Part shown: positions 3,795-60,540 of the stretch, in pieces
How the letters are laid out: each line of letters begins with the position of its first letter
Position numbering within the stretch: position 1 is the stretch's first letter
Assembly (NCBI GenBank): GCA_963752375.1
Contig: CAVVYF010000023.1
Span: 20,472-84,471 of the forward strand
Reading direction: 5' to 3'
DNA length: 64,000 nt
Source: Terriglobia bacterium
GTDB lineage: Bacteria > Acidobacteriota > Terriglobia > Terriglobales > Acidobacteriaceae
Notes under the pieces: model-generated
Told to the model about the DNA's origin: nothing
Database searches by the model: none
What the model saw: the letters and a program-made list of their open reading frames with translations, nothing else
Made by a program: the position numbers and the translations under genes

Positions 3795-4505
3795 ATGACC
3801 TCAGAAGCGAAGCGGAAAATCCAGCTGGTGCTGGTGGTTGCGATCGCAGCAACCGGCCTTCGTGCCGGCTATGTTGTGTACGAGCGGCATGCCGACAAGG
3901 CCGAAGAAACCAAACAGCAGGCGCCGCCCCTGAATCCTGATTATTACGTCATTCCGAAGAAGCTTTATCCCTACGATTTGAAGTCGGCCAAACAGCTGAC
4001 CCAACAGCCGGTGTGGGTCAGGGAAGGTTACCGCTTTACCTATTACCCCTACGACCGGACGCGCCAGCGCACGGATTTTACGCATGAGGCCGGCCTGCTG
4101 CTGCCCATCCAGAAGCTGGAGATCAAGGATGTGGTCACCGATGTGGCGCCTCACTCCGCGCACCTGCATCAGGTGATGGCGGTGTTCGAATTGGAGGGCA
4201 AGAGTTACGCTGTTCCTATCGGTTCGCAGACCGGCGACAGCTATCAGATCTATTCCGACGAAATGTTCTTCATCCAGGACCCGCACGAGTTGTACAAGCA
4301 CTGGCCGTCCGATGTCTGGGCATCGATCGAGCAACACCAGATCAAGCCAGGGATGAATGAATTTCAGGCCTACTTTTCCATCGGGATGGGAGTTCCGGAG
4401 CGGTCAATCGATCCGGCGGTGAAAACCGTGCACTATCCCAACGGAGGCAAGCCGGTGACCATCACTTTCCGGGACGGCAAGGCGGCAGAGATCACGGGCG
4501 GGTAG
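3795..4505 (+). CDS. hypothetical membrane-anchored protein
   Basis: 236-aa ORF with an N-terminal TM segment (KIQLVLVVAIAATGLRAGYVVY) and ordinary amino-acid composition; no family recognised. Confidence 0.6.
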   Translation: MTSEAKRKIQLVLVVAIAATGLRAGYVVYERHADKAEETKQQAPPLNPDYYVIPKKLYPYDLKSAKQLTQQPVWVREGYRFTYYPYDRTRQRTDFTHEAGLLLPIQKLEIKDVVTDVAPHSAHLHQVMAVFELEGKSYAVPIGSQTGDSYQIYSDEMFFIQDPHELYKHWPSDVWASIEQHQIKPGMNEFQAYFSIGMGVPERSIDPAVKTVHYPNGGKPVTITFRDGKAAEITGG

Positions 4506-4579
4506 CAACTTTAACTGAGATCTGACAACTTGGATCTGACATCTGAAACCTGAAACGAAAAAATCCGGAAACCAGGATA

Positions 4580-4716
4580 GTGGGTCAGTTTCGTGATAAG
4601 ACACGGCCAGTGCATAAACCACCAAGGACACGAAGTATCACGAAGGCTTTGTTTTCCAGGGTTTTCTTCGTGTACCTTCGTGCCCTTCGTGGTTCATGGT
4701 TTCCAAACTGACCCAC
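4580..4716. repeat. CACGAAGG-type element, long form with outer gtgggtcag arms
   Basis: gtgggtcagttt...accaccaaggacacgaagtatcacgaagg...ccttcgtgcccttcgtggtt...aaactgacccac; its reverse complement is near-identical to 18713-18832. Confidence 0.9.
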
Positions 4717-4731
4717 CACCGAAACCGGCCT

Positions 4732-5172
4732 TCACTTCACTACGGGCGACTTGTCCGTCGCCGGACCCTGCTCATCGGCGTGGATCTCACTATCTTCGTC
4801 GGCATAGAAGGAGCGGTGCTCGGCATCGAGCTGCTTGGGCGTAAGAGTCAAATCGAACCCGTTCTTGTTGGGACGGAATCCGACGGAGTAGTCGCCGCGG
4901 TCCGGGTTCACCATGCGTTTGGTGAACGATCCGGTGTGCACCAGTTGCGCCAGCGAGGTGGCATACTTGTCATTCTTCTTCTTGTAGAGCTTCTGGGCGC
5001 GCAGCACGGTGCGCATGTAGCCCAGGGCAGCGGCTTCCGAGTCCGAGCGGGCGGGATCGCCCTTGAATTTTGGCTGGTAGGTGCTCTGTGCCGCGGCGGC
5101 CATACAGCTTACCAGCAGCATCGCCGCCACCCTCCGAATATGTTGTTTCACGCGTCTGCCTCGCGATTTCAT
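4732..5172 (-). CDS. hypothetical secreted protein
   Basis: 146 aa with a signal-like N-terminus (RRVAAMLLVSCMAAAAQS) and ordinary composition; no family recognised. Confidence 0.55.
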   Translation of the reverse strand: MKSRGRRVKQHIRRVAAMLLVSCMAAAAQSTYQPKFKGDPARSDSEAAALGYMRTVLRAQKLYKKKNDKYATSLAQLVHTGSFTKRMVNPDRGDYSVGFRPNKNGFDLTLTPKQLDAEHRSFYADEDSEIHADEQGPATDKSPVVK

Positions 5173-5319: not shown

Positions 5320-5994
5320 ATGAAGGCTGCAACCGCCATGAAGGCTTCACCAGCAAAGAAACCGGCCATCCGCCTGGCTGTGGTGGAGAGCGATCCACTG
5401 CGCTTTGTGGGATTTCGCGCCCTGTTTGACTCGGAGACGGACTTCGAACTGATCGCGGCCTCGCTGCCCGACATCGCAAGCCTGCCGAACATTGATCTGG
5501 TGTTGCTGGGAAACCGCAACGGGCAGAACCTGTTCGACCTGATGGCCAGCCTCAAAGCCAGCCGTCCTGACCTGCGCATCATTGTGACAGGTTCGGGCAT
5601 GGACGAGGAAACCATCTTGAAGGCCATTGCTTCCGGCGCCAAAGGGTACGTGGACGAAGCGGCCTCGCCGGCTGAGTTTGTGCAGGCCATCCGCATTGTG
5701 AACCAGGGTTCGGTGTGGGCGCCCCGCCGGGTGCTTTCCCTGTTCATCGAGCGTGTGAGTTCCGCGCCGGGCCGGGTCTTTCCGGCGGGGCGCGTGACGT
5801 TTACCGACCGCGAAAAGGAAGTGCTGGAAATGCTGGTGGCGGGCCGCTCCAACAAGGAAATCGGTTCTGCCCTGGGCATCGAGGAACGCACCGTGAAGGC
5901 CCACGTGGCCAAGCTGATGCGGAAGGTGGGAGTGCAGAACCGGATTGCGCTTTCGGTGCACGCCATCACGCACTCGCTGGTCACGGCGAAGTAG
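5320..5994 (+). CDS. LuxR/NarL-family response regulator with atypical (pseudo-)receiver domain
   Basis: C-terminal LuxR HTH TDREKEVLEMLVAGRSNKEIGSALGIEERTVKAHVAKLMRKVGVQNR; N-terminal REC-like fold, but DLVLLG replaces the usual DLVLLD. Confidence 0.85.
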   Translation: MKAATAMKASPAKKPAIRLAVVESDPLRFVGFRALFDSETDFELIAASLPDIASLPNIDLVLLGNRNGQNLFDLMASLKASRPDLRIIVTGSGMDEETILKAIASGAKGYVDEAASPAEFVQAIRIVNQGSVWAPRRVLSLFIERVSSAPGRVFPAGRVTFTDREKEVLEMLVAGRSNKEIGSALGIEERTVKAHVAKLMRKVGVQNRIALSVHAITHSLVTAK

Positions 5995-6024
5995 GAGAAA
6001 TCTCAGAATCCGCGAACTGTTAAA

Positions 6025-6047
6025 TTGCCGGATCTAGAATCCGGCAA
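6025..6047 (+). terminator. hairpin downstream of the response-regulator gene
   Basis: ttgccggat-ctaga-atccggcaa, a 9-bp perfect stem 30 nt after the stop; no clear T-tract. Confidence 0.3.
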
Positions 6048-6398
6048 CAATCTCGTCAAATTCCTCACTCCGGCAGTACTTCAATCCGTCGTTTCGCAAT
6101 CCCCCAATCCAGCAAATCCAGCTTTTCTGCAGCCGAAGGGCGAGGTTACTTTAGGACAGTGACCTGGGTAATCTTGTAGCTTCAGCTCGCTCCACGCATA
6201 CTCGATTCACCTACCACAGAACCTGGGAGACGGGGTTGGGAGCGGAGATTTAGGGTCACCGCTGCTGGCCCCGATTTTTTTGGCATTCCCGATTCCTCGT
6301 GGCACTCTCCCCGCCCCTACCTTCCTCCGGGAAATCCGCTAAAATCAACACACCGGTTTGAAATCAAGACTCTATCAAGTCCAGAAAGTCAGGAAGAA

Positions 6399-7091
6399 AT
6401 GAAAAAACTGCTGCTTCTGTGTGTAGTCGCGTGTCTCGCCATTTCCACGTTTGCCAAGGATGATGAGGACCAGAACAAGGCCGAAGACCGCATCAAGGCC
6501 GCCAGCACGGTGCTGGATGAGATTGAATCCGCTCCCGATCAGGGTATTCCGGAAGAAGTCCTGGGGTCGGCCGAATGCGTGGCCGTCGTGCCTACCATGA
6601 TTAAAGGCGGTTTCATCGTGGGCGCCCGGTTTGGGCGCGGCGTTGCCAGCTGCCGCACGCCCAAAGGTTGGAGCGCGCCGGCTTTCTTCACCATCAAAGG
6701 CGGAAGCTTCGGCCTGCAGATCGGCGCCCAGGCGGTCGATCTGGTCATGCTCATCATGAACGACAACGGCATGAAGAACCTGCTGAGCAGCCAGTTCAAA
6801 CTGGGGGCGGATGCCAGCGTAGCGGCCGGACCGGTTGGCCGACATGCCGCCGCTGACACGGACTGGAAACTGAAGGCGCAGGTGCTGAGCTATTCCCGGG
6901 CGCGTGGATTGTTCGCCGGCCTCGAGCTGAGCGGCGCGGCGATCGACCAGGACAAGGACGCGACCCGCGAGTTCTACGGCCGCATGGTGCCCTTCAAGAC
7001 CGCGCTGACCGGCACCATTGATGCTCCCGCCAATGCCTACCCGTTCCTGAACACGCTGGCGAAGTGGGCCAAAACGGCGGCCGACAAGTAA
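6399..7091 (+). CDS. SYLF (Ysc84/DUF500) lipid-binding domain protein, secreted or lipoprotein-like
   Basis: Signal peptide MKKLLLLCVVACLAIS; core ECVAVVPTMIKGGFIVGARFGRGV...GGSFGLQIGAQ...GADASVAAGPVGR is typical of the SYLF domain. Confidence 0.8.
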   Translation: MKKLLLLCVVACLAISTFAKDDEDQNKAEDRIKAASTVLDEIESAPDQGIPEEVLGSAECVAVVPTMIKGGFIVGARFGRGVASCRTPKGWSAPAFFTIKGGSFGLQIGAQAVDLVMLIMNDNGMKNLLSSQFKLGADASVAAGPVGRHAAADTDWKLKAQVLSYSRARGLFAGLELSGAAIDQDKDATREFYGRMVPFKTALTGTIDAPANAYPFLNTLAKWAKTAADK

Positions 7092-7099
7092 CGGCCTTG

Positions 7100-7122
7100 A
7101 ACCGGAACCAGGTTCCGGTTTG
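7100..7122 (+). terminator. hairpin after the SYLF gene
   Basis: aaccggaacc-a-ggttccggttt palindrome, 9 nt after the TAA at 7089-7091. Confidence 0.4.
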
Positions 7123-7164
7123 ACAACCCACCGTCCGCTTGCTACCGTCACCAGTTTCCTCCAG

Positions 7165-8064
7165 ATGCGTCAGCGATTCGAGTACGCGCTTGCGTGGCCG
7201 TTCATCAAAACGCTGAGCCTGTTACCTCGTCCTCTCTCGCGCGCAGCGGCAATATCTCTGGCCTGGACGGTTTACCTGCTGCACGTGCGTTTGCGGCGCG
7301 TGGGCATGCGCAATCTCGCCATGGCGATGCCGGAGAAGAGCCGCAGCGAGCATACCCGCATCCTGCGCGGAGAATTTACCTCGCTGGGCCGCCAACTGGC
7401 TGAGGTCTGCCAGTTTCCCCGCTATACCAGGGAAAACGTCAGCCGCGTAGTGGTCTATGACGGCTTCGAGAACTACGAACGGGCCGCCGCCCGCGGCAAG
7501 GGCGTATTGTTTCTTACCGCTCACTTCGGCGGCTGGGAACTCTCCGCTTTTGTGCATTCGCTGCATGGCCACTGGATGCATGTGGTGGTGCGCAACCTGG
7601 ACAACATCTATCTCGACCGCCTGATCCAGCGCTATCGCTCGATGCACGGCAACACCACCGTCAGCAAGGATGATTTTGTGCGCGGGCTCCTGCAGGCGAT
7701 GAAAGCCGGGGAGATGGTTGGCCTGCTGATGGACACCAACATGACTCCGCCGCAAGGTGTGTTCGTGAACTTCTTCGGCATTCCCGCCTGCACCGCCAGC
7801 GGCCTGGCCAGAATCGCATTGCGCACCGACGCCGCCGTGGTTCCGGGCTTCACCATCTGGGATCCCACGCTGCGTAAATACCGGCTGCGCTTCGATCCCG
7901 CCGTAAATCTGGTGCGCACCGGCAACGACGAGGCAGATATCGTCACCAACACCCAGATCTTCACCAAAATTACCGAGGATTATGTTCGCCGCTATCCCGA
8001 CCAGTGGTTGTGGGTGCATCGGCGCTGGAAGACGAGGCCGCCGGGTGAGCCGGGGTTGTACTGA
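7165..8064 (+). CDS. lipid A biosynthesis (Kdo2-lipid IVA) acyltransferase, LpxL/HtrB-family
   Basis: LFLTAHFGGWEL (HX4E/D acyltransferase motif) and ...PDQWLWVHRRWK C-terminus. Start set at ATG 7165 because the TTG at 7120 lies inside the upstream hairpin; start uncertain. Confidence 0.8.
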   Translation: MRQRFEYALAWPFIKTLSLLPRPLSRAAAISLAWTVYLLHVRLRRVGMRNLAMAMPEKSRSEHTRILRGEFTSLGRQLAEVCQFPRYTRENVSRVVVYDGFENYERAAARGKGVLFLTAHFGGWELSAFVHSLHGHWMHVVVRNLDNIYLDRLIQRYRSMHGNTTVSKDDFVRGLLQAMKAGEMVGLLMDTNMTPPQGVFVNFFGIPACTASGLARIALRTDAAVVPGFTIWDPTLRKYRLRFDPAVNLVRTGNDEADIVTNTQIFTKITEDYVRRYPDQWLWVHRRWKTRPPGEPGLY

Positions 8065-8070
8065 GAAAGG

Positions 8071-8160
8071 CAGCTCCTAGCTCCTGGCTGCTAGCTTCTG
8101 GCGAAGTCCGAAGTTTTTTGAAGGATTTTAGCTAGGAGCTAGAAGCTAGCAGCTAGCAGC
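8071..8160. repeat. GCTAGC-rich complementary repeat blocks
   Basis: agctcctag / gctgctagcttct on the left and ctaggagct / agaagctagcagc on the right, around an AAGTTTTTTGAAGG centre; lies between convergent genes. Confidence 0.75.
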
Positions 8161-8166
8161 GGGCCT

Positions 8167-8319
8167 TCAAAACCAATCGCTGCGGTAGGCGATCCACCAG
8201 CTGGCATACGCGATGGGGATGGTTGCCACCAGCGCCCACCAGATGGGCAGGATGAAGTCCGCGGCCAGGCCCAGTATGGTGAACGCGCCCCAGAACACTT
8301 TTCTTTCCATATCGTTCAT
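8167..8319 (-). CDS. small 2-TM membrane protein, hypothetical
   Basis: MNDMERKVFWGAFTILGLAADFILPIWWALVATIPIAYASWWIAYRSDWF; the track ORF extends to 8367, the internal ATG at 8319 is preferred; divergent from lpxD. Confidence 0.35.
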   Translation of the reverse strand: MNDMERKVFWGAFTILGLAADFILPIWWALVATIPIAYASWWIAYRSDWF

Positions 8320-8374
8320 TATTCTAGACCCGGGCCAGCTTTCCTTTCCCTGATCAAACGTATACAAAGGTGCA

Positions 8375-9376
8375 ATGAAGCGGTCACTCCTTTCGATTGC
8401 TCAGGCGGTCCAGGCGCGGGTGGTGGGAGATGGCGCGGTCGAAGTGAGTGGAGTTGCCAGCATTTTGCAGGCAACGCCGGTGGACCTGGTGTTTGTCGAA
8501 GACGAAAAGAGCCTGCGGGCGGCGCTCGGCTCGCGGGCCGCAGCGGTCATTGCGGGTGAATTTGCTTCGGATTCAAAGGAAAAGAGTAACGGCAAGTCTC
8601 TGCTGATATGCAGGCATCCCAGGCTGGCGTTTGCCCGGGCCGCACAGCTTCTCTGTTCCGCGTCTGGTCGGCAGCAGGGGAGCCATCCCAGCGCGGTCGT
8701 GCATGCTTCGGCCCGGCTGGGCACCAAGGTGATCGTGGCCGAGCGAGCCGTCATTGGCCAGCAGGCCGAGGTCGGCGATCAGACCTGGATTGGGGCCGGC
8801 GCCGTAATTGGTGAAGGGGTTCATATCGGCAGGGATTGCCAGCTATATCCCAATGTCACCATCTACCCTGGCGCGCGACTCGGTGATCGCGTGATTGTTC
8901 ATGCCGGAGCCGTACTGGGCGCGGATGGTTTTGGCTATGTCCGCGACCCGGCCAGCGGGCGCTACGAGAAGTTTCCCCAGGTAGGGCGGCTTGAAATCGG
9001 AGATGACGTGGAGATCGGAGCCAACTCGACCATCGATCGGGGAGCGCTCGAAGTCACCCGCATCGGACGCGGCGCCAAGATCGATAATCTGGTGCACATC
9101 GGGCACAACTGCCAGATCGGGGAGGACGTAGTGATCGCGGCCCAGACCGGGCTCTCCGGCAGCATCGTGATCGAGAAGAATGTCGTGCTGGGCGGCCAGG
9201 TGGGCATCGGAGAGCACGCCCGGCTGGAAGAAGGTGTGATGCTGGGCGGGCAAGGCGGCGTTCTTCCCCACAAGGTACTGCGCGGCAAGGGCGTGGCTTT
9301 CTGGGGAACTCCGGCGCGCCCGGTGCGCGAATATCTGAAACAGCTGGCGGCTTTGGCAAGGCTGGCTCGGAAGTAG
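8375..9376 (+). CDS. lpxD: UDP-3-O-acylglucosamine N-acyltransferase
   Basis: 333 aa; N-terminal LpxD domain followed by a long left-handed beta-helix hexapeptide repeat region (IGDDVEIGANSTIDRGA...IDNLVHIGHNCQIGEDVVI...). Confidence 0.9.
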   Translation: MKRSLLSIAQAVQARVVGDGAVEVSGVASILQATPVDLVFVEDEKSLRAALGSRAAAVIAGEFASDSKEKSNGKSLLICRHPRLAFARAAQLLCSASGRQQGSHPSAVVHASARLGTKVIVAERAVIGQQAEVGDQTWIGAGAVIGEGVHIGRDCQLYPNVTIYPGARLGDRVIVHAGAVLGADGFGYVRDPASGRYEKFPQVGRLEIGDDVEIGANSTIDRGALEVTRIGRGAKIDNLVHIGHNCQIGEDVVIAAQTGLSGSIVIEKNVVLGGQVGIGEHARLEEGVMLGGQGGVLPHKVLRGKGVAFWGTPARPVREYLKQLAALARLARK

Positions 9377-56593: not shown

Positions 56594-56681
56594 TGGTGCC
56601 GGGAGGGGGAGTTGAACCCCCAAGGTACTAAGTACCGGCGGATTTTGAGTCCGCTGCGTCTGCCAGTTTCGCCACCCCGGC
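56594..56681 (-). tRNA. tRNA-Leu(CAA), copy 1
   Basis: Reverse complement GCCGGGGTGGCGAAACTGGCAGACGCAGCGGACTCAAAATCCGCCGGTACTTAGTACCTTGGGGGTTCAACTCCCCCTCCCGGCACCA. It has a 7-bp acceptor (one G-U), anticodon loop CTCAAAA, a long variable arm, T-arm GGGGG/CCCCC and an encoded CCA. Confidence 0.9.
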
Positions 56682-56908
56682 GCTACTTGCAAGTGCCTGA
56701 TTTTACGACCTGTTTAAGGCTCTGTTCCCTTCTCATCCAAAATGACGAATGTGCAACTGTGTAAGAAAGTGTGTCAGTTTTCACGGATTTCCACAGTTCG
56801 TTGTCATTACGCCCGTGAAGCGCTTCGCCGGCGATTCTCGGGCTAAGAGTCCATTGCCAAGTCATAAAAAGCACCTGCACCAGATCCTGCCACTTCATTT
56901 AAGAGCGG

Positions 56909-57568
56909 CTACCTTTTGATTTCACGCGAAGCAGACGACTTCCCGTCCGAAAGAACATCACCGTTACGAGCCAGCAACTCAAGTAGTTCGAACTTCACAG
57001 GTCGAGGATATTTTTGCGCGTATAACAGAAGTTTGTCGCGATCGAGCTTGCGGAGGTCGAACTCGTCGATGATTGCTTCAGTTCCTCGCTTTCGCGACAA
57101 GTAGAACCAGTCCAACAGAGCCTTCTCTGGTTCTGCAGTGTTGTACGTCCCGTATAGGGTTCTTCGTGCTTGGAACCCCCAATAGAGACTAGCTTTGATA
57201 TGTCTGAACGTTATCGACACCGTGCGCGAACTGAACGATGCCGGTTCGCCGGTGGTAACGCCGGTGATCGAAACTGGCGTCTGTGAGCTTATGCCCGCCT
57301 CTCGAAGGACCGTTTGAAGCGAAACATATGATCGAGGCCGTAGAAGATTCACAAGCTCACGACCCGAGAAGTCTCGTGCAAGCAGGTTGATAAACCACTT
57401 CTTCGCAAAGTGTTCGATCATGCCTCTCCTCACAAGTCTGAGAAACGATCTTCGGACAACTAGCTCAGACATTCCCAAACGGCGGGCGATCTCATCCGAT
57501 TTCAATAGTGGAGAGACCCTAGCTTCTTCCGATACGAATTTCGCCCAGTCGATGCGTGATGCTTTCAT
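56909..57568 (-). CDS. AbiEi-like antitoxin/transcriptional regulator (type IV TA family)
   Basis: Start ATG 57568 overlaps the upstream TGA (ATGA). wHTH SDEIARRLGMSELVVRRSFLRLVRRGMI; C-domain SYVSLQTVLREAGISSQTPVSITGVTT...TAEPEKALLDWFYL. Confidence 0.75.
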   Translation of the reverse strand: MKASRIDWAKFVSEEARVSPLLKSDEIARRLGMSELVVRRSFLRLVRRGMIEHFAKKWFINLLARDFSGRELVNLLRPRSYVSLQTVLREAGISSQTPVSITGVTTGEPASFSSRTVSITFRHIKASLYWGFQARRTLYGTYNTAEPEKALLDWFYLSRKRGTEAIIDEFDLRKLDRDKLLLYAQKYPRPVKFELLELLARNGDVLSDGKSSASREIKR

Positions 57569-58353
57569 TGTTTTAGCCACTCCGCGAATAGATCGCGCAG
57601 GGATTGCCTCAGTGGTTCGAATTCTTTTCTCGCAAGCTGTCGATACACCTCTTCGGGGAGATATTCGCGCAGCTCAGCCTCGCAGCGTTTAGGCGTCACT
57701 GCGGCAATTCGTTCATTGATGAAATTGGGATCTTCAAGCCGGTCCGAGACAACTCCGTCTTCTAGATGGAATTTTAGGTTCCCATCCAATCCTGCTCCTG
57801 AGTCCTTCAGGAGCTTAATATCGAAAGCGTCTCTACACTTGACGTTCTTCCTGCCCAGGAAGGCTTCGGCCTTGTGTAGCAGAAGCAAATTTCGGGTTGG
57901 GTATTTGACGATGGCGTCGTCCGTGAGGATCGACTGCTCAACAAGTTCGCTCTTTATGACTGCCGAAGTCCGCGAGACATCAATCGTGAAGAGGGTTCGT
58001 TGGTCTTTAGATTCCACCTTGATTTTGAGAAGATATTCGCTGTCGACAATTACGCTGATTGCCAAGGGAGCGAGTCCGAACGCCTGAGCCACTTCCCCTA
58101 GCGCGGGCGATATGGAATCAATGATCGTCTCGGCACTCGGGGTTTCATCACAGTTGAGCAAGAGATCGATGTCACCGGAATGCCTCTGACTTCCGTAAAA
58201 CAAGACAAGAGTTGCCCCGCCGAAAAGCACAAACGTGTCCGTAAAGCTCGTGAAAAGGCTATGCAGCGCCTCCTCAATGAGCACCAACACAGCGGCAGTT
58301 TCGGCTCGAAACCCTCGGTCTTCGAAGTTTTTCAAACGCTTAGCAAGAGTCAT
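57565..58353 (-). CDS. AbiEii/DUF1814-family nucleotidyltransferase (putative toxin)
   Basis: 262 aa; FVLFGGATLVLFYGSQRHSGDIDLL (NTase G[GS]..DxD) and LLHKAEAFLGRKNVKCRDAFDIKLL, matching conserved AbiEii motifs. Confidence 0.8.
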   Translation of the reverse strand: MTLAKRLKNFEDRGFRAETAAVLVLIEEALHSLFTSFTDTFVLFGGATLVLFYGSQRHSGDIDLLLNCDETPSAETIIDSISPALGEVAQAFGLAPLAISVIVDSEYLLKIKVESKDQRTLFTIDVSRTSAVIKSELVEQSILTDDAIVKYPTRNLLLLHKAEAFLGRKNVKCRDAFDIKLLKDSGAGLDGNLKFHLEDGVVSDRLEDPNFINERIAAVTPKRCEAELREYLPEEVYRQLARKEFEPLRQSLRDLFAEWLKQ

Positions 58354-58364
58354 CGGCGATAATA

Positions 58365-58429
58365 GACATTTATGGTGCTAATCGTAGCACATTGCTAAGA
58401 TTCAAAGCTAAAAAGCGACATTTATGGTG
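58365..58429. promoter_or_regulatory. pair of 13-bp direct repeats upstream of the AbiE-like operon
   Basis: GACATTTATGGTG at 58365-58377 and at 58417-58429, 52 bp start to start, just upstream (minus sense) of the start at 58353. Confidence 0.35.
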
Positions 58430-58518
58430 TCTTTAACCCAGCAAATGCGGCTCTCTGCAAAAAGTCTTTGATTTCAAGGGACTCCGAAAGTTGGCGGAAG
58501 CCTGCGGCGACAACTTCA

Positions 58519-58534
58519 AGTCCGCTGCGTCTGC
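58519..58534 (-). other. 16-nt fragment identical to the tRNA-Leu D-arm/anticodon-stem segment
   Basis: agtccgctgcgtctgc also occurs inside both tRNA copies; flanking bases diverge. Confidence 0.7.
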
Positions 58535-58598
58535 TAAAGATTTTCATCGCATGCGGAGAGCTAGACCAACTAACCGCGTGTTCTATGGGTTTTTGAGG

Positions 58599-58686
58599 TG
58601 GTGCCGGGAGGGGGAGTTGAACCCCCAAGGTACTAAGTACCGGCGGATTTTGAGTCCGCTGCGTCTGCCAGTTCCGCCATCCCGGC
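58599..58686 (-). tRNA. tRNA-Leu(CAA), copy 2
   Basis: Reverse complement GCCGGGATGGCGGAACTGGCAGACGCAGCGGACTCAAAATCCGC...CTCCCGGCACCA; fully Watson-Crick acceptor stem; differs from copy 1 at 2 of 88 positions. Confidence 0.9.
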
Positions 58687-59284
58687 TTGATAGGTCAAGG
58701 GGCGCTGCCAATGGGCCTGCCGCACGTTCAATCTTCAGTTCCCGGTTGCTACGGTATCGCCAACTCTGGTTCTGGTACCGGTTGCATCCCCCGCATCGTC
58801 TTCGGGCAGGGCCTTAGTATCGCATAGCCTTTAGACTGCCGCCAATGGATGCTGGTATCAGGTGATGGCTCACTTTGAAAACCGTCCCTTTCGAGCGGCG
58901 TCATCCTGAGGAACTTCAGTCCCGAAGGATCTGGCGTGCATGGACAGCAAGGCAGGGTTAAAGGGTGTTTCCGCTGCGCGCCGGATCCTTCACGGCCTGA
59001 AGGCCCTTCAGGAAGAAGCCTTTGGGTAAGGGAGAAATTTCGAACTGAGCCACTCCCTGGGATCAACATGGGAAGATTTGGAGTGCCAATCGAATCCCTG
59101 CTTGCTGCCCATCAACTCCCGCCTGCTGATGTCCGCCGGCGAACGTGTGCCTTACAATGCCGGTGAAGTGCTGTTTCTGTTGTATCGTCTTGCGGAGAGA
59201 TCGAGCCCTGGAGCATCATCTTTGCGTTTGTCATATCAGCGGAGGATGGAAAATGGAAACTCCAGCGGCGCGCGGAAGGCGGCC

Positions 59285-60400: not shown

Positions 60401-60405
60401 CCGTA

Positions 60406-60540
60406 GTGTGGGTCGGACACTCTTGTCCGACGCCTTTGATGTTGGTTTTGAATTCGGTTTTGATGTTGCTTGTGGGTTTTCTTCATTGCGAAATTCAAGA
60501 GCAAAGTCAAAGGCGTCGGACAAGAGTGTCCGACCCACAC
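60406..60540. repeat. MITE-like element, copy C
   Basis: gtgtgggtcggacactcttgtccgacgcctttgatg... ...caaagtcaaaggcgtcggacaagagtgtccgacccacac; lies between convergent genes. Confidence 0.9.

Follow-up and report, generated by a model that had tools for sequence, protein, structure and literature searches.

A toxin-first AbiE-like gene pair between two tRNA-Leu(CAA) genes of a soil Terriglobia bacterium

The locus and its two genes

In a 64-kb stretch of DNA from a soil Terriglobia bacterium (referred to here as the window), a short islet is found between two genes for tRNA-Leu(CAA). The islet harbors a two-gene operon, abiEii and abiEi, which resembles the AbiE family and in which the gene of the presumed toxin precedes that of the presumed antitoxin. 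Both tRNA genes, i.e., copy A at 56594..56681 and copy B at 58599..58686, are located on the minus strand; they are the only tRNA genes identified by ARAGORN in the entire window, and a scan with Rfam, which gave scores of 50.6 and 54 bits for the two copies, yielded nothing besides them. The two genes constitute a flanking repeat of 88 nucleotides (nt) with 98% identity, i.e., with two mismatches, at tRNA positions 7 and 13, where copy A has G and A and copy B has A and G, respectively. The CCA end is encoded in both copies, and the similarity does not extend beyond the tRNA ends. The GC content is 0.48-0.52 within the islet compared to 0.56-0.69 in the flanks. Only two open reading frames are found between the tRNAs, i.e., abiEii (57565..58353, minus strand), which encodes a protein of 262 amino acid residues (aa), and the abiEi-like gene (56909..57568, minus strand), which encodes 219 aa from its ATG. 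The two genes overlap by an ATGA at 57565-57568, and no integrase gene is present within the islet. An earlier description of this DNA, made from the letters and the translated open reading frames (referred to here as the sequence-only reading), had reported this layout, and ARAGORN, Rfam, the repeat comparison, the base composition and the open reading frames all agree with it.

The product of abiEii was assigned in the sequence-only reading to the AbiEii/DUF1814 nucleotidyltransferases, which was confirmed by a search with hidden Markov models, where the protein matches the Pfam AbiEii model PF08843 (E 5.4e-15, 56.4 bits at a cut-off of 22.5) as well as sixteen PADLOC AbiEii models. The AlphaFold model has a predicted local distance difference test score (pLDDT) of 94.6, and its best matches in the PDB, found using Foldseek, are the DUF1814 enzymes JHP933, MenT3/TglT and MenT4. 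Throughout the clade to which the window pair belongs, the motifs GG..S-x-R-x-S-x-D-x-D and K..R..RDAFD are unchanged; in 38 clade members the residues G45, G46, S55, R57, S59, D61, K161, R168, R174, D175 and D178 are invariant and D63 is nearly so. The first of these motifs aligns with RFSEDLD of JHP933. The pol-beta-type nucleotidyltransferase motifs of abiEii are therefore intact, and S59 would be the equivalent of the phospho-acceptors S78 of MenT3 and T65 of AbiEii. Searches of the PDB with the single sequences gave nothing useful for either protein; the profile of the toxin clade reached JHP933 alone, with a weak match. A tblastn search with abiEii against 72,556 plasmids gave no match.

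For the second gene, the sequence-only reading had proposed the layout of an AbiEi protein. None of the Pfam AbiEi models matches the product, and the score for the NCBIfam model TAA_AbiEi, 38.9 bits, falls below the cut-off of 150 bits, but the PADLOC AbiEi model PDLC02241 matches it over almost the full length (E 7.9e-26). The protein can also be aligned over its full length with the canonical 212-aa AbiEi proteins, with which it has SYVSLQ, FRHIK and AEPEKALLD in common. The AlphaFold model (pLDDT 88.5) has as its top PDB match in Foldseek the AbiEi of Streptococcus (S.) agalactiae, 6Y8Q (E 4e-7, probability 1.0), and a profile search reaches 6Y8Q and 9HLO at E 0.003. On the basis of the PADLOC match, the full-length alignment and the structural match, the protein belongs to the AbiEi family; it is composed of a winged helix-turn-helix domain and a COG5340-type C-terminal domain and presumably acts as antitoxin and repressor. 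The proposed layout was thus supported by structure and by PADLOC, but not by the Pfam and NCBIfam models. The antitoxin loop that reads D-E-I in S. agalactiae reads S-Q-T in the window protein, and the details of antitoxin action may therefore differ. More generally, the toxin-first antitoxin branch is reached by PADLOC and by no Pfam model. In L002 (relatives' loci are labelled L001-L138), the antitoxin homologue at 6723-7382 (GCA_018268755.1, MBS1853123.1) is labelled "hypothetical protein" by NCBI, while the neighboring toxin is labelled AbiEii.

The region upstream of abiEii (58354..58445, minus strand) is a conserved putative promoter/operator region. In the window, the 13-nt sequence CACCATAAATGTC is present twice, at 58365-58377 and 58417-58429 (0.01 matches expected by chance); these repeats are direct, not inverted, and the upstream region that carries them is kept in all copies. 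An extended -10-like element, TGCTACGAT, is located between them at 58381-58389 and reads TGGTACAAT in most relatives. A sigma-70 promoter scan of the islet gave no match, and terminator matches in the islet did not exceed the chance level. The CACCATAAATGTC repeats are a candidate operator, at which AbiEi would repress the operon. From homology with the MenT toxins and the AbiEii of S. agalactiae, the toxin would most likely add nucleotides to the 3' ends of tRNA, halting translation, and AbiEi would most likely neutralize it by binding followed by induced auto-phosphorylation. The ATGA overlap would couple translation of the antitoxin to that of the toxin.

Gene order and toxin-gene decay in relatives

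In the window and in every clade member, abiEii is located upstream and abiEi downstream. This order was observed in ~50 close copies, found in metagenomes from soil and in genomes of Terriglobia, and also in homologues with 44-53% identity (L130, L132, L135 and L137), which reside in unrelated contexts and where a gene for a 205-214 aa protein without Pfam match begins 10-17 nt after the toxin gene. Remoter AbiEi relatives (22-28% identity, full-length alignment) display the canonical antitoxin-first order, as does a match on a Runella plasmid. Among four plasmid relatives of the AbiEi from Ammonifex (see below), three are antitoxin-first and the fourth, from Campylobacter, is ambiguous. With the toxin-first antitoxin profile, 30 representative clusters are found at E <= 1e-30 compared to 2288 at E <= 1e-3, and the toxin-first branch is therefore small. 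The toxin-first order, which is kept down to 44% identity, is a stable trait of a clade.

According to Dy et al. 2014, the regulator gene precedes the nucleotidyltransferase gene "in each case", and the toxin-first order is therefore atypical. The sequence-only reading had considered the order to be a possible mark of an undescribed system. The order is real, clade-wide and contrary to the rule of Dy et al., but it is already known: according to a 2026 preprint (10.64898/2026.01.19.700257), the gene for the DUF1814 protein RlegT in the validated RlegTA system lies upstream of that for RlegA, a COG5340 antitoxin of 205 aa, and the RefSeq plasmid NC_013386.1 (pADEG01 of Ammonifex degensii) is annotated with AbiEii followed by an overlapping AbiEi gene. 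A literature search for "reversed AbiE" found no explicit description.

One of the more distant homologues is part of a longer string of genes. At 1-5450 of L137/L138, genes are found in this order for RtcR, which is a sigma-54 activator of RNA repair, for ARPP-1, for a protein of 144 aa, for AbiEii and for an AbiEi-like protein, with the toxin-first pair, which is 44% identical to that of the window, at the end of the string. This arrangement hints at a link between this toxin family and the regulation of RNA repair.

The two genes decay to different extents. Among ~26 distinct copies that cover both genes, abiEii is frameshifted in 11, which cuts its frame at the aligned start codon; for L001, a product of 241 aa that is shorter at the N-terminus is still called. 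In all 11 of these copies the 219-aa frame of abiEi is retained, and every full-length copy has an intact abiEi. The reverse pattern, i.e., a broken abiEi together with an intact abiEii, was found in none of the ~26 copies. Three of the frameshift alleles are also present in a second metagenome contig, and a sequencing error is therefore unlikely. Assuming that frameshifts occur in proportion to gene length, we calculate the chance of the 11-of-11 pattern to be 0.545^11, i.e., ~1e-3. Such one-sided decay is the pattern expected if the product of the first gene does harm and that of the second protects, and it indirectly supports a real toxicity of the first gene.

A disruption of another type was observed in L123, where an IS21-like element resides within abiEi (5677-8779); the toxin gene of the same cassette already lacks its 5' part. 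The element was named from the appearance of its open reading frames of 542 aa and 259 aa, which are IstA/IstB-like.

The tRNA-Leu(CAA) locus and the origin of the islet

The species-representative genomes were queried with the neighboring GH5-like protein, which gave 80 Terriglobia loci. One of these, L005, harbors an empty site of the type suggested in the sequence-only reading, where the gene order is 5'-3' exonuclease, bfr, a single tRNA-Leu(CAA), GH5 and threonine dehydratase, and where the nucleotide identity to the window is ~90% in both flanks. Homology to L005 extends from the left flank through tRNA copy A and returns in the right flank at 59216; the tRNA-flanked segment is therefore an insertion. 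Copy A is contiguous with the bfr-side flank, as is the tRNA of the empty site, and carries the private substitutions G7 and A13. Copy B is identical to the lone tRNA of another relative, L008, and its 5' flank, B5 (58687..58855, minus strand), which matches the 5' flank of the tRNA in L006 and L008, is read as the host side of the locus.

The two-gene cassette is accompanied by a non-coding spacer of 227 nt, referred to here as S (56682..56908, minus strand), which is located between abiEi and tRNA A and travels with the cassette. S was seen solely in loci that bear the cassette, and in none of the 80 genome loci without a cassette does it adjoin tRNA-Leu(CAA); its conservation equals that of the coding genes. 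A 71-aa open reading frame in S was considered as a gene and rejected, as it is not conserved and its counterpart in L003 stops after 3 codons. Among ~29 distinct cassette loci whose downstream flank is long enough, tRNA-Leu(CAA) sequence is found <=235 nt downstream in 22, always in the orientation of the cassette. A full tRNA is present in 15 of the ~29 loci, 14 of which have it 226-234 nt away, past S, while in the remaining one, L110, S is shortened; in 5 loci the tRNA is reduced to its 5' part and in 2 loci S is fused to 3' tRNA parts. Five loci, including that of the window, display tRNA sequence on both sides of the cassette, and in L086, as in the window, both tRNAs are complete. Upstream of the cassette, a full tRNA is found in the window, L002 and L086/L087, while shorter pieces comprise positions 4-35 in L115, 1-39 in L098, L104 and L125, and 1-30 in L096, where the piece is located 40 nt before the start of the cassette homology (133 nt before the abiEii ATG).

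A circular form of 2005 bp was also considered, as contigs with homologues are often ~2.1 kb in length. No contig with a terminal overlap was found, L003 and L115 are linear with different flanks, and the length of these contigs is explained by the shortness of metagenome contigs.

The ends of the tRNA pieces are clustered. In ~20 loci the last tRNA position kept in the 5' pieces is one of 30-39, and the first one kept in the 3' pieces is one of 30-37, i.e., all breaks are located at the anticodon stem-loop. In L007, L011, L013 and L056 just a 5' tRNA part is found, which ends at positions 34-39 and adjoins the GH5-side flank, and in sister loci tRNA repeats of 30-39 nt are paired with a full tRNA. 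Breaks clustered at the anticodon loop are the usual mark of integrase action at this site, and the cluster observed here points to site-specific recombination. Furthermore, closely related cassettes are joined to tRNAs that have differing variable arms, and the two tRNAs that flank the cassette in L086 also differ there; the boundary of the element is therefore located inside the tRNA. In L127, genes for a tyrosine integrase and a resolvase are found directly 3' of the cassette-linked tRNA, outside the cassette side.

Islands with the classical arrangement are also found in these genomes. In L014 a small island is delimited by a full tRNA and a repeat of its 3' part (6609-6658 and 7851-7937), and in L123/L124 a full tRNA is followed ~0.7 kb downstream by positions 32-88. 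Both polarities of the tRNA repeat are therefore present in these genomes.

Two remnants that were absent from the sequence-only reading are located between the promoter region and tRNA B. One is a 51-nt piece of a DUF4143 AAA ATPase gene, from the part that encodes the C-terminus (..DFKGLRKLAEACGDNFK; 58470..58520, plus strand), which has 92-96% nucleotide identity to L006 4001-4051, where the gene is classified as DUF4143/AAA_14, and to L088 48-99. The other is an orphan tRNA-Leu fragment (58519..58534, minus strand), an exact match over 16 nt to tRNA positions 19-34 (0 matches expected by chance), which ends at the anticodon loop. Together with the 64 nt that follow tRNA B (58535..58598, minus strand), this fragment forms a segment, B3, that is also found after tRNA-Leu(CAA) in L006, L086, L087 and L089 but is missing there from L005 and L008. 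Both B3 and the ATPase remnant have their counterparts at the left end of an island in L006. In the metagenome contigs L088/L089 a longer arrangement is seen, composed of a degenerate ATPase gene, a 397-aa gene, the cassette, S, the tRNA and B3, compared to which the window is 2.3 kb shorter, and L104 harbors another less reduced version of the island. The ATPase remnant is thus what is left of a larger island like those of L006 and L088.

In relatives, the same tRNA-Leu(CAA) locus is occupied by a range of other genes: a TOTE conflict-system primase-helicase, a DUF4143 ATPase and a KTSC protein in L006 (315-4526), HipA in L011 (3003-4235), a fragment of a type I restriction subunit in L008 (1284-1706) and two PIN toxins in L104 (2131-4160). 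The locus is a variable hot spot for defense and toxin-antitoxin genes in these Terriglobia.

We consider it probable, at roughly 65%, that abiEii/abiEi is an AbiE-family toxin-antitoxin or abortive-infection module that belongs to a toxin-first sublineage and resides on a reduced tRNA-Leu(CAA) island. The attachment region of the island would comprise S, tRNA sequence and B3, with tRNA sequence to either side of the attachment site and with the cassette and S as the tRNA-proximal end, and the island would recombine inside the tRNA, probably by means of an integrase acting at the anticodon loop. Such recombination would leave one tRNA at either end, and later internal deletions would have stripped the island down to the AbiE pair. 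Homologous recombination between the 88-nt copies could delete the pair and restore the empty site. The sequence-only reading had assigned both gain and loss to this latter process, which is plausible for loss, but as the sole mode of gain it is at odds with the island scars and the breakpoints at positions 30-39. The suggestion that whole tRNA genes without an integrase represent a new mode of mobilization is not supported, in view of the ATPase remnant, the cut tRNA fragment, the longer islands in L088/L089 and L104, and the same breakpoints.

A number of observations weigh against the interpretation as a module on a reduced island. No integrase was found inside any of the cassette-bearing islets examined, and no excised or circular form was seen. 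No tRNA is found nearby in ~7 of the ~29 loci, i.e., about a quarter (e.g., L001, L095 and L097); the cassette therefore moves or is maintained outside the tRNA context as well. The 3' half that the two tRNA copies have in common requires gene conversion or an incoming element of the same tRNA lineage, and the succession in which integration and deletions took place was reconstructed rather than observed. We infer the biochemical roles, the tRNA target, the phospho-acceptor and the operator binding from homology, and the acidic loop of the S. agalactiae AbiEi is replaced here.

Among alternative explanations, an autonomous cassette of 2 kb, which includes a whole tRNA-Leu(CAA) and moves only by RecA-type recombination, i.e., in by a Campbell-type crossover and out by a crossover between the tRNAs, would account for the two complete tRNAs in the window and L086, the lack of an integrase, the co-transfer of S and tRNA sequence with the cassette, and the single tRNA at the empty site. 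This explanation is unlikely, because it leaves unexplained the gene remnants and the tRNA fragment inside the islet as well as the larger versions of the island, many junctions are tRNA halves split at positions 30-39 rather than anywhere in the 88 nt, no contig displays the terminal overlap of a circle, and a 2-kb circle would have no means of replication or transfer. The islet could also have originated from a local duplication of the tRNA, followed by separate capture of the AbiE cassette between the copies without any tRNA-directed element. The variable and T arms of the two copies are lineage-specific and common to both, and the copies differ only by the two private substitutions of copy A, as would be expected after a duplication. 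However, S and the cassette are tied to tRNA-Leu(CAA) or its halves in ~20 independent contexts, the cassette-S-tRNA junction is found in unrelated flanking contexts, the two flanking tRNAs of L086 have unlike variable arms, and B3 and the ATPase remnant match the L006 island, all of which makes local duplication distinctly improbable.

The remaining alternatives concern function. We find it very improbable that the spacer and tRNA-Leu(CAA) are a functional third component of the system, i.e., a promoter together with the 5' half or the whole of a tRNA that is the target of the nucleotidyltransferase. A more specific scenario, where the linked tRNA is a working part such that the cassette brings its own promoter and a class II tRNA that is the target of the toxin and buffers or senses it, merits still less credence. 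The conservation of S, which is as good as that of the coding genes, and the position of the tRNA, which is always downstream and on the same strand, speak for such a role. Yet, the tRNA is missing from about a quarter of the copies, several others have tRNA halves beside intact genes, the distant toxin-first pairs L130, L132, L135 and L137 reside in gene contexts unrelated to this one (as judged from the genes), and tRNA halves are ordinary scars of attachment sites. If true, a functional tRNA would tie tRNA supply to toxin control, and a 2-kb unit without an integrase could then spread through recombination inside the tRNA gene. We also give very little credence to the idea that the pair is not a toxin-antitoxin system at all, but consists of a transcription factor and a nucleotidyltransferase whose role in the cell is harmless. 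The clade is known from sequence alone and the acidic antitoxin loop is not conserved, which would be consistent with such a role, but frameshifts are found in 11 copies of the toxin gene and in none of the antitoxin gene, the catalytic motifs are intact, and the cassette, which is AT-rich and mobile, is present in many contexts beside other toxin-antitoxin genes.

Two repeats were observed in the neighborhood of the islet. A stretch of 46 nt upstream of tRNA B (58896-58941) is 96-98% identical to part of a repeat unit in L012, where a 186-nt unit is found in tandem in 3.6 copies (4268-4946) and resembles an intergenic repeat family; no further copy is present within the window. The intergenic region between GH5 and threonine dehydratase (60405-60540) aligns, with 72-76% identity, to the orthologous region of several relatives in reverse complement, which suggests a palindromic repeat element.

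Relation to known systems

The characterized AbiE/MenAT systems, i.e., AbiEi-AbiEii of S. agalactiae and Lactococcus lactis and MenA-MenT of Mycobacterium tuberculosis, combine a DUF1814/COG2253 toxin with a COG5340 antitoxin. The window pair resembles these systems in the fold of the toxin and its catalytic motifs, the two-domain antitoxin, the two-gene operon with a 4-nt overlap, the presence of promoter repeats and the location on mobile DNA. It differs from them in that the toxin gene comes first, the promoter repeats are direct rather than inverted, and the antitoxin loop is S-Q-T rather than D-E-I or P-E-Y. Furthermore, its sequence has very little identity to the characterized members, as phmmer finds no match to the PDB and the identity in the Foldseek alignments is 13-18%.

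Closer counterparts are found among RlegTA, SanaTA and SdenTA, DUF1814 toxin-antitoxin systems that were identified by shotgun cloning (Sberro et al. 2013 as described in 10.64898/2026.01.19.700257). As in the window, an antitoxin of COG5340 type, with ~205 aa, is encoded downstream of the DUF1814 gene in RlegTA, a likeness taken from the wording of the preprint. The hosts are Rhizobium and Shewanella in these cases and Terriglobia in that of the window. The pair on pADEG01 is similarly toxin-first with overlapping genes, both of which are annotated in RefSeq. Over its full length, the AbiEi of pADEG01 can be aligned with the window family (hhalign probability 99.8, E 3e-28), and its loop, ILSQ, is similar. 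This pair adjoins a tyrosine recombinase and other toxin-antitoxin genes. Unlike the window pair, it resides on a plasmid in a Bacillota host without a tRNA context, and its AbiEii is remote (hhalign probability 95). The window pair is best placed in the toxin-first branch of the DUF1814/COG5340 family, together with the RlegTA-type systems.

These findings add to the AbiE/MenT family an uncharacterized, mostly acidobacterial branch with toxin-first order, and pipelines that use Pfam/NCBI models or assume the antitoxin-first order may undercount such pairs. The lopsided decay of the toxin gene offers evidence for toxicity at the population level that does not require an experiment, and the tRNA-Leu(CAA) locus could serve as a natural catalogue of defense and toxin-antitoxin genes in a poorly studied phylum.

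The islet itself has much in common with tRNA-targeting islands and their integrase-less derivatives, both cis-mobilizable and decayed, i.e., insertion at a tRNA gene, direct tRNA repeats, an atypical base composition, a cargo of defense or toxin-antitoxin genes and an empty site in a relative. In contrast to these islands, the repeats are whole tRNA genes and an integrase is not present. At tRNA islands the usual orphan piece is a 3' fragment, whereas in many of the sister loci the orphan is the 5' half of the tRNA on the 5' flank of the host. The islet is a decayed tRNA-targeted island, for which the whole-tRNA repeats and the 5'-half orphans are uncommon but require no new mechanism, and the current understanding of AbiE systems and of tRNA-targeted islands is unchanged by these findings.

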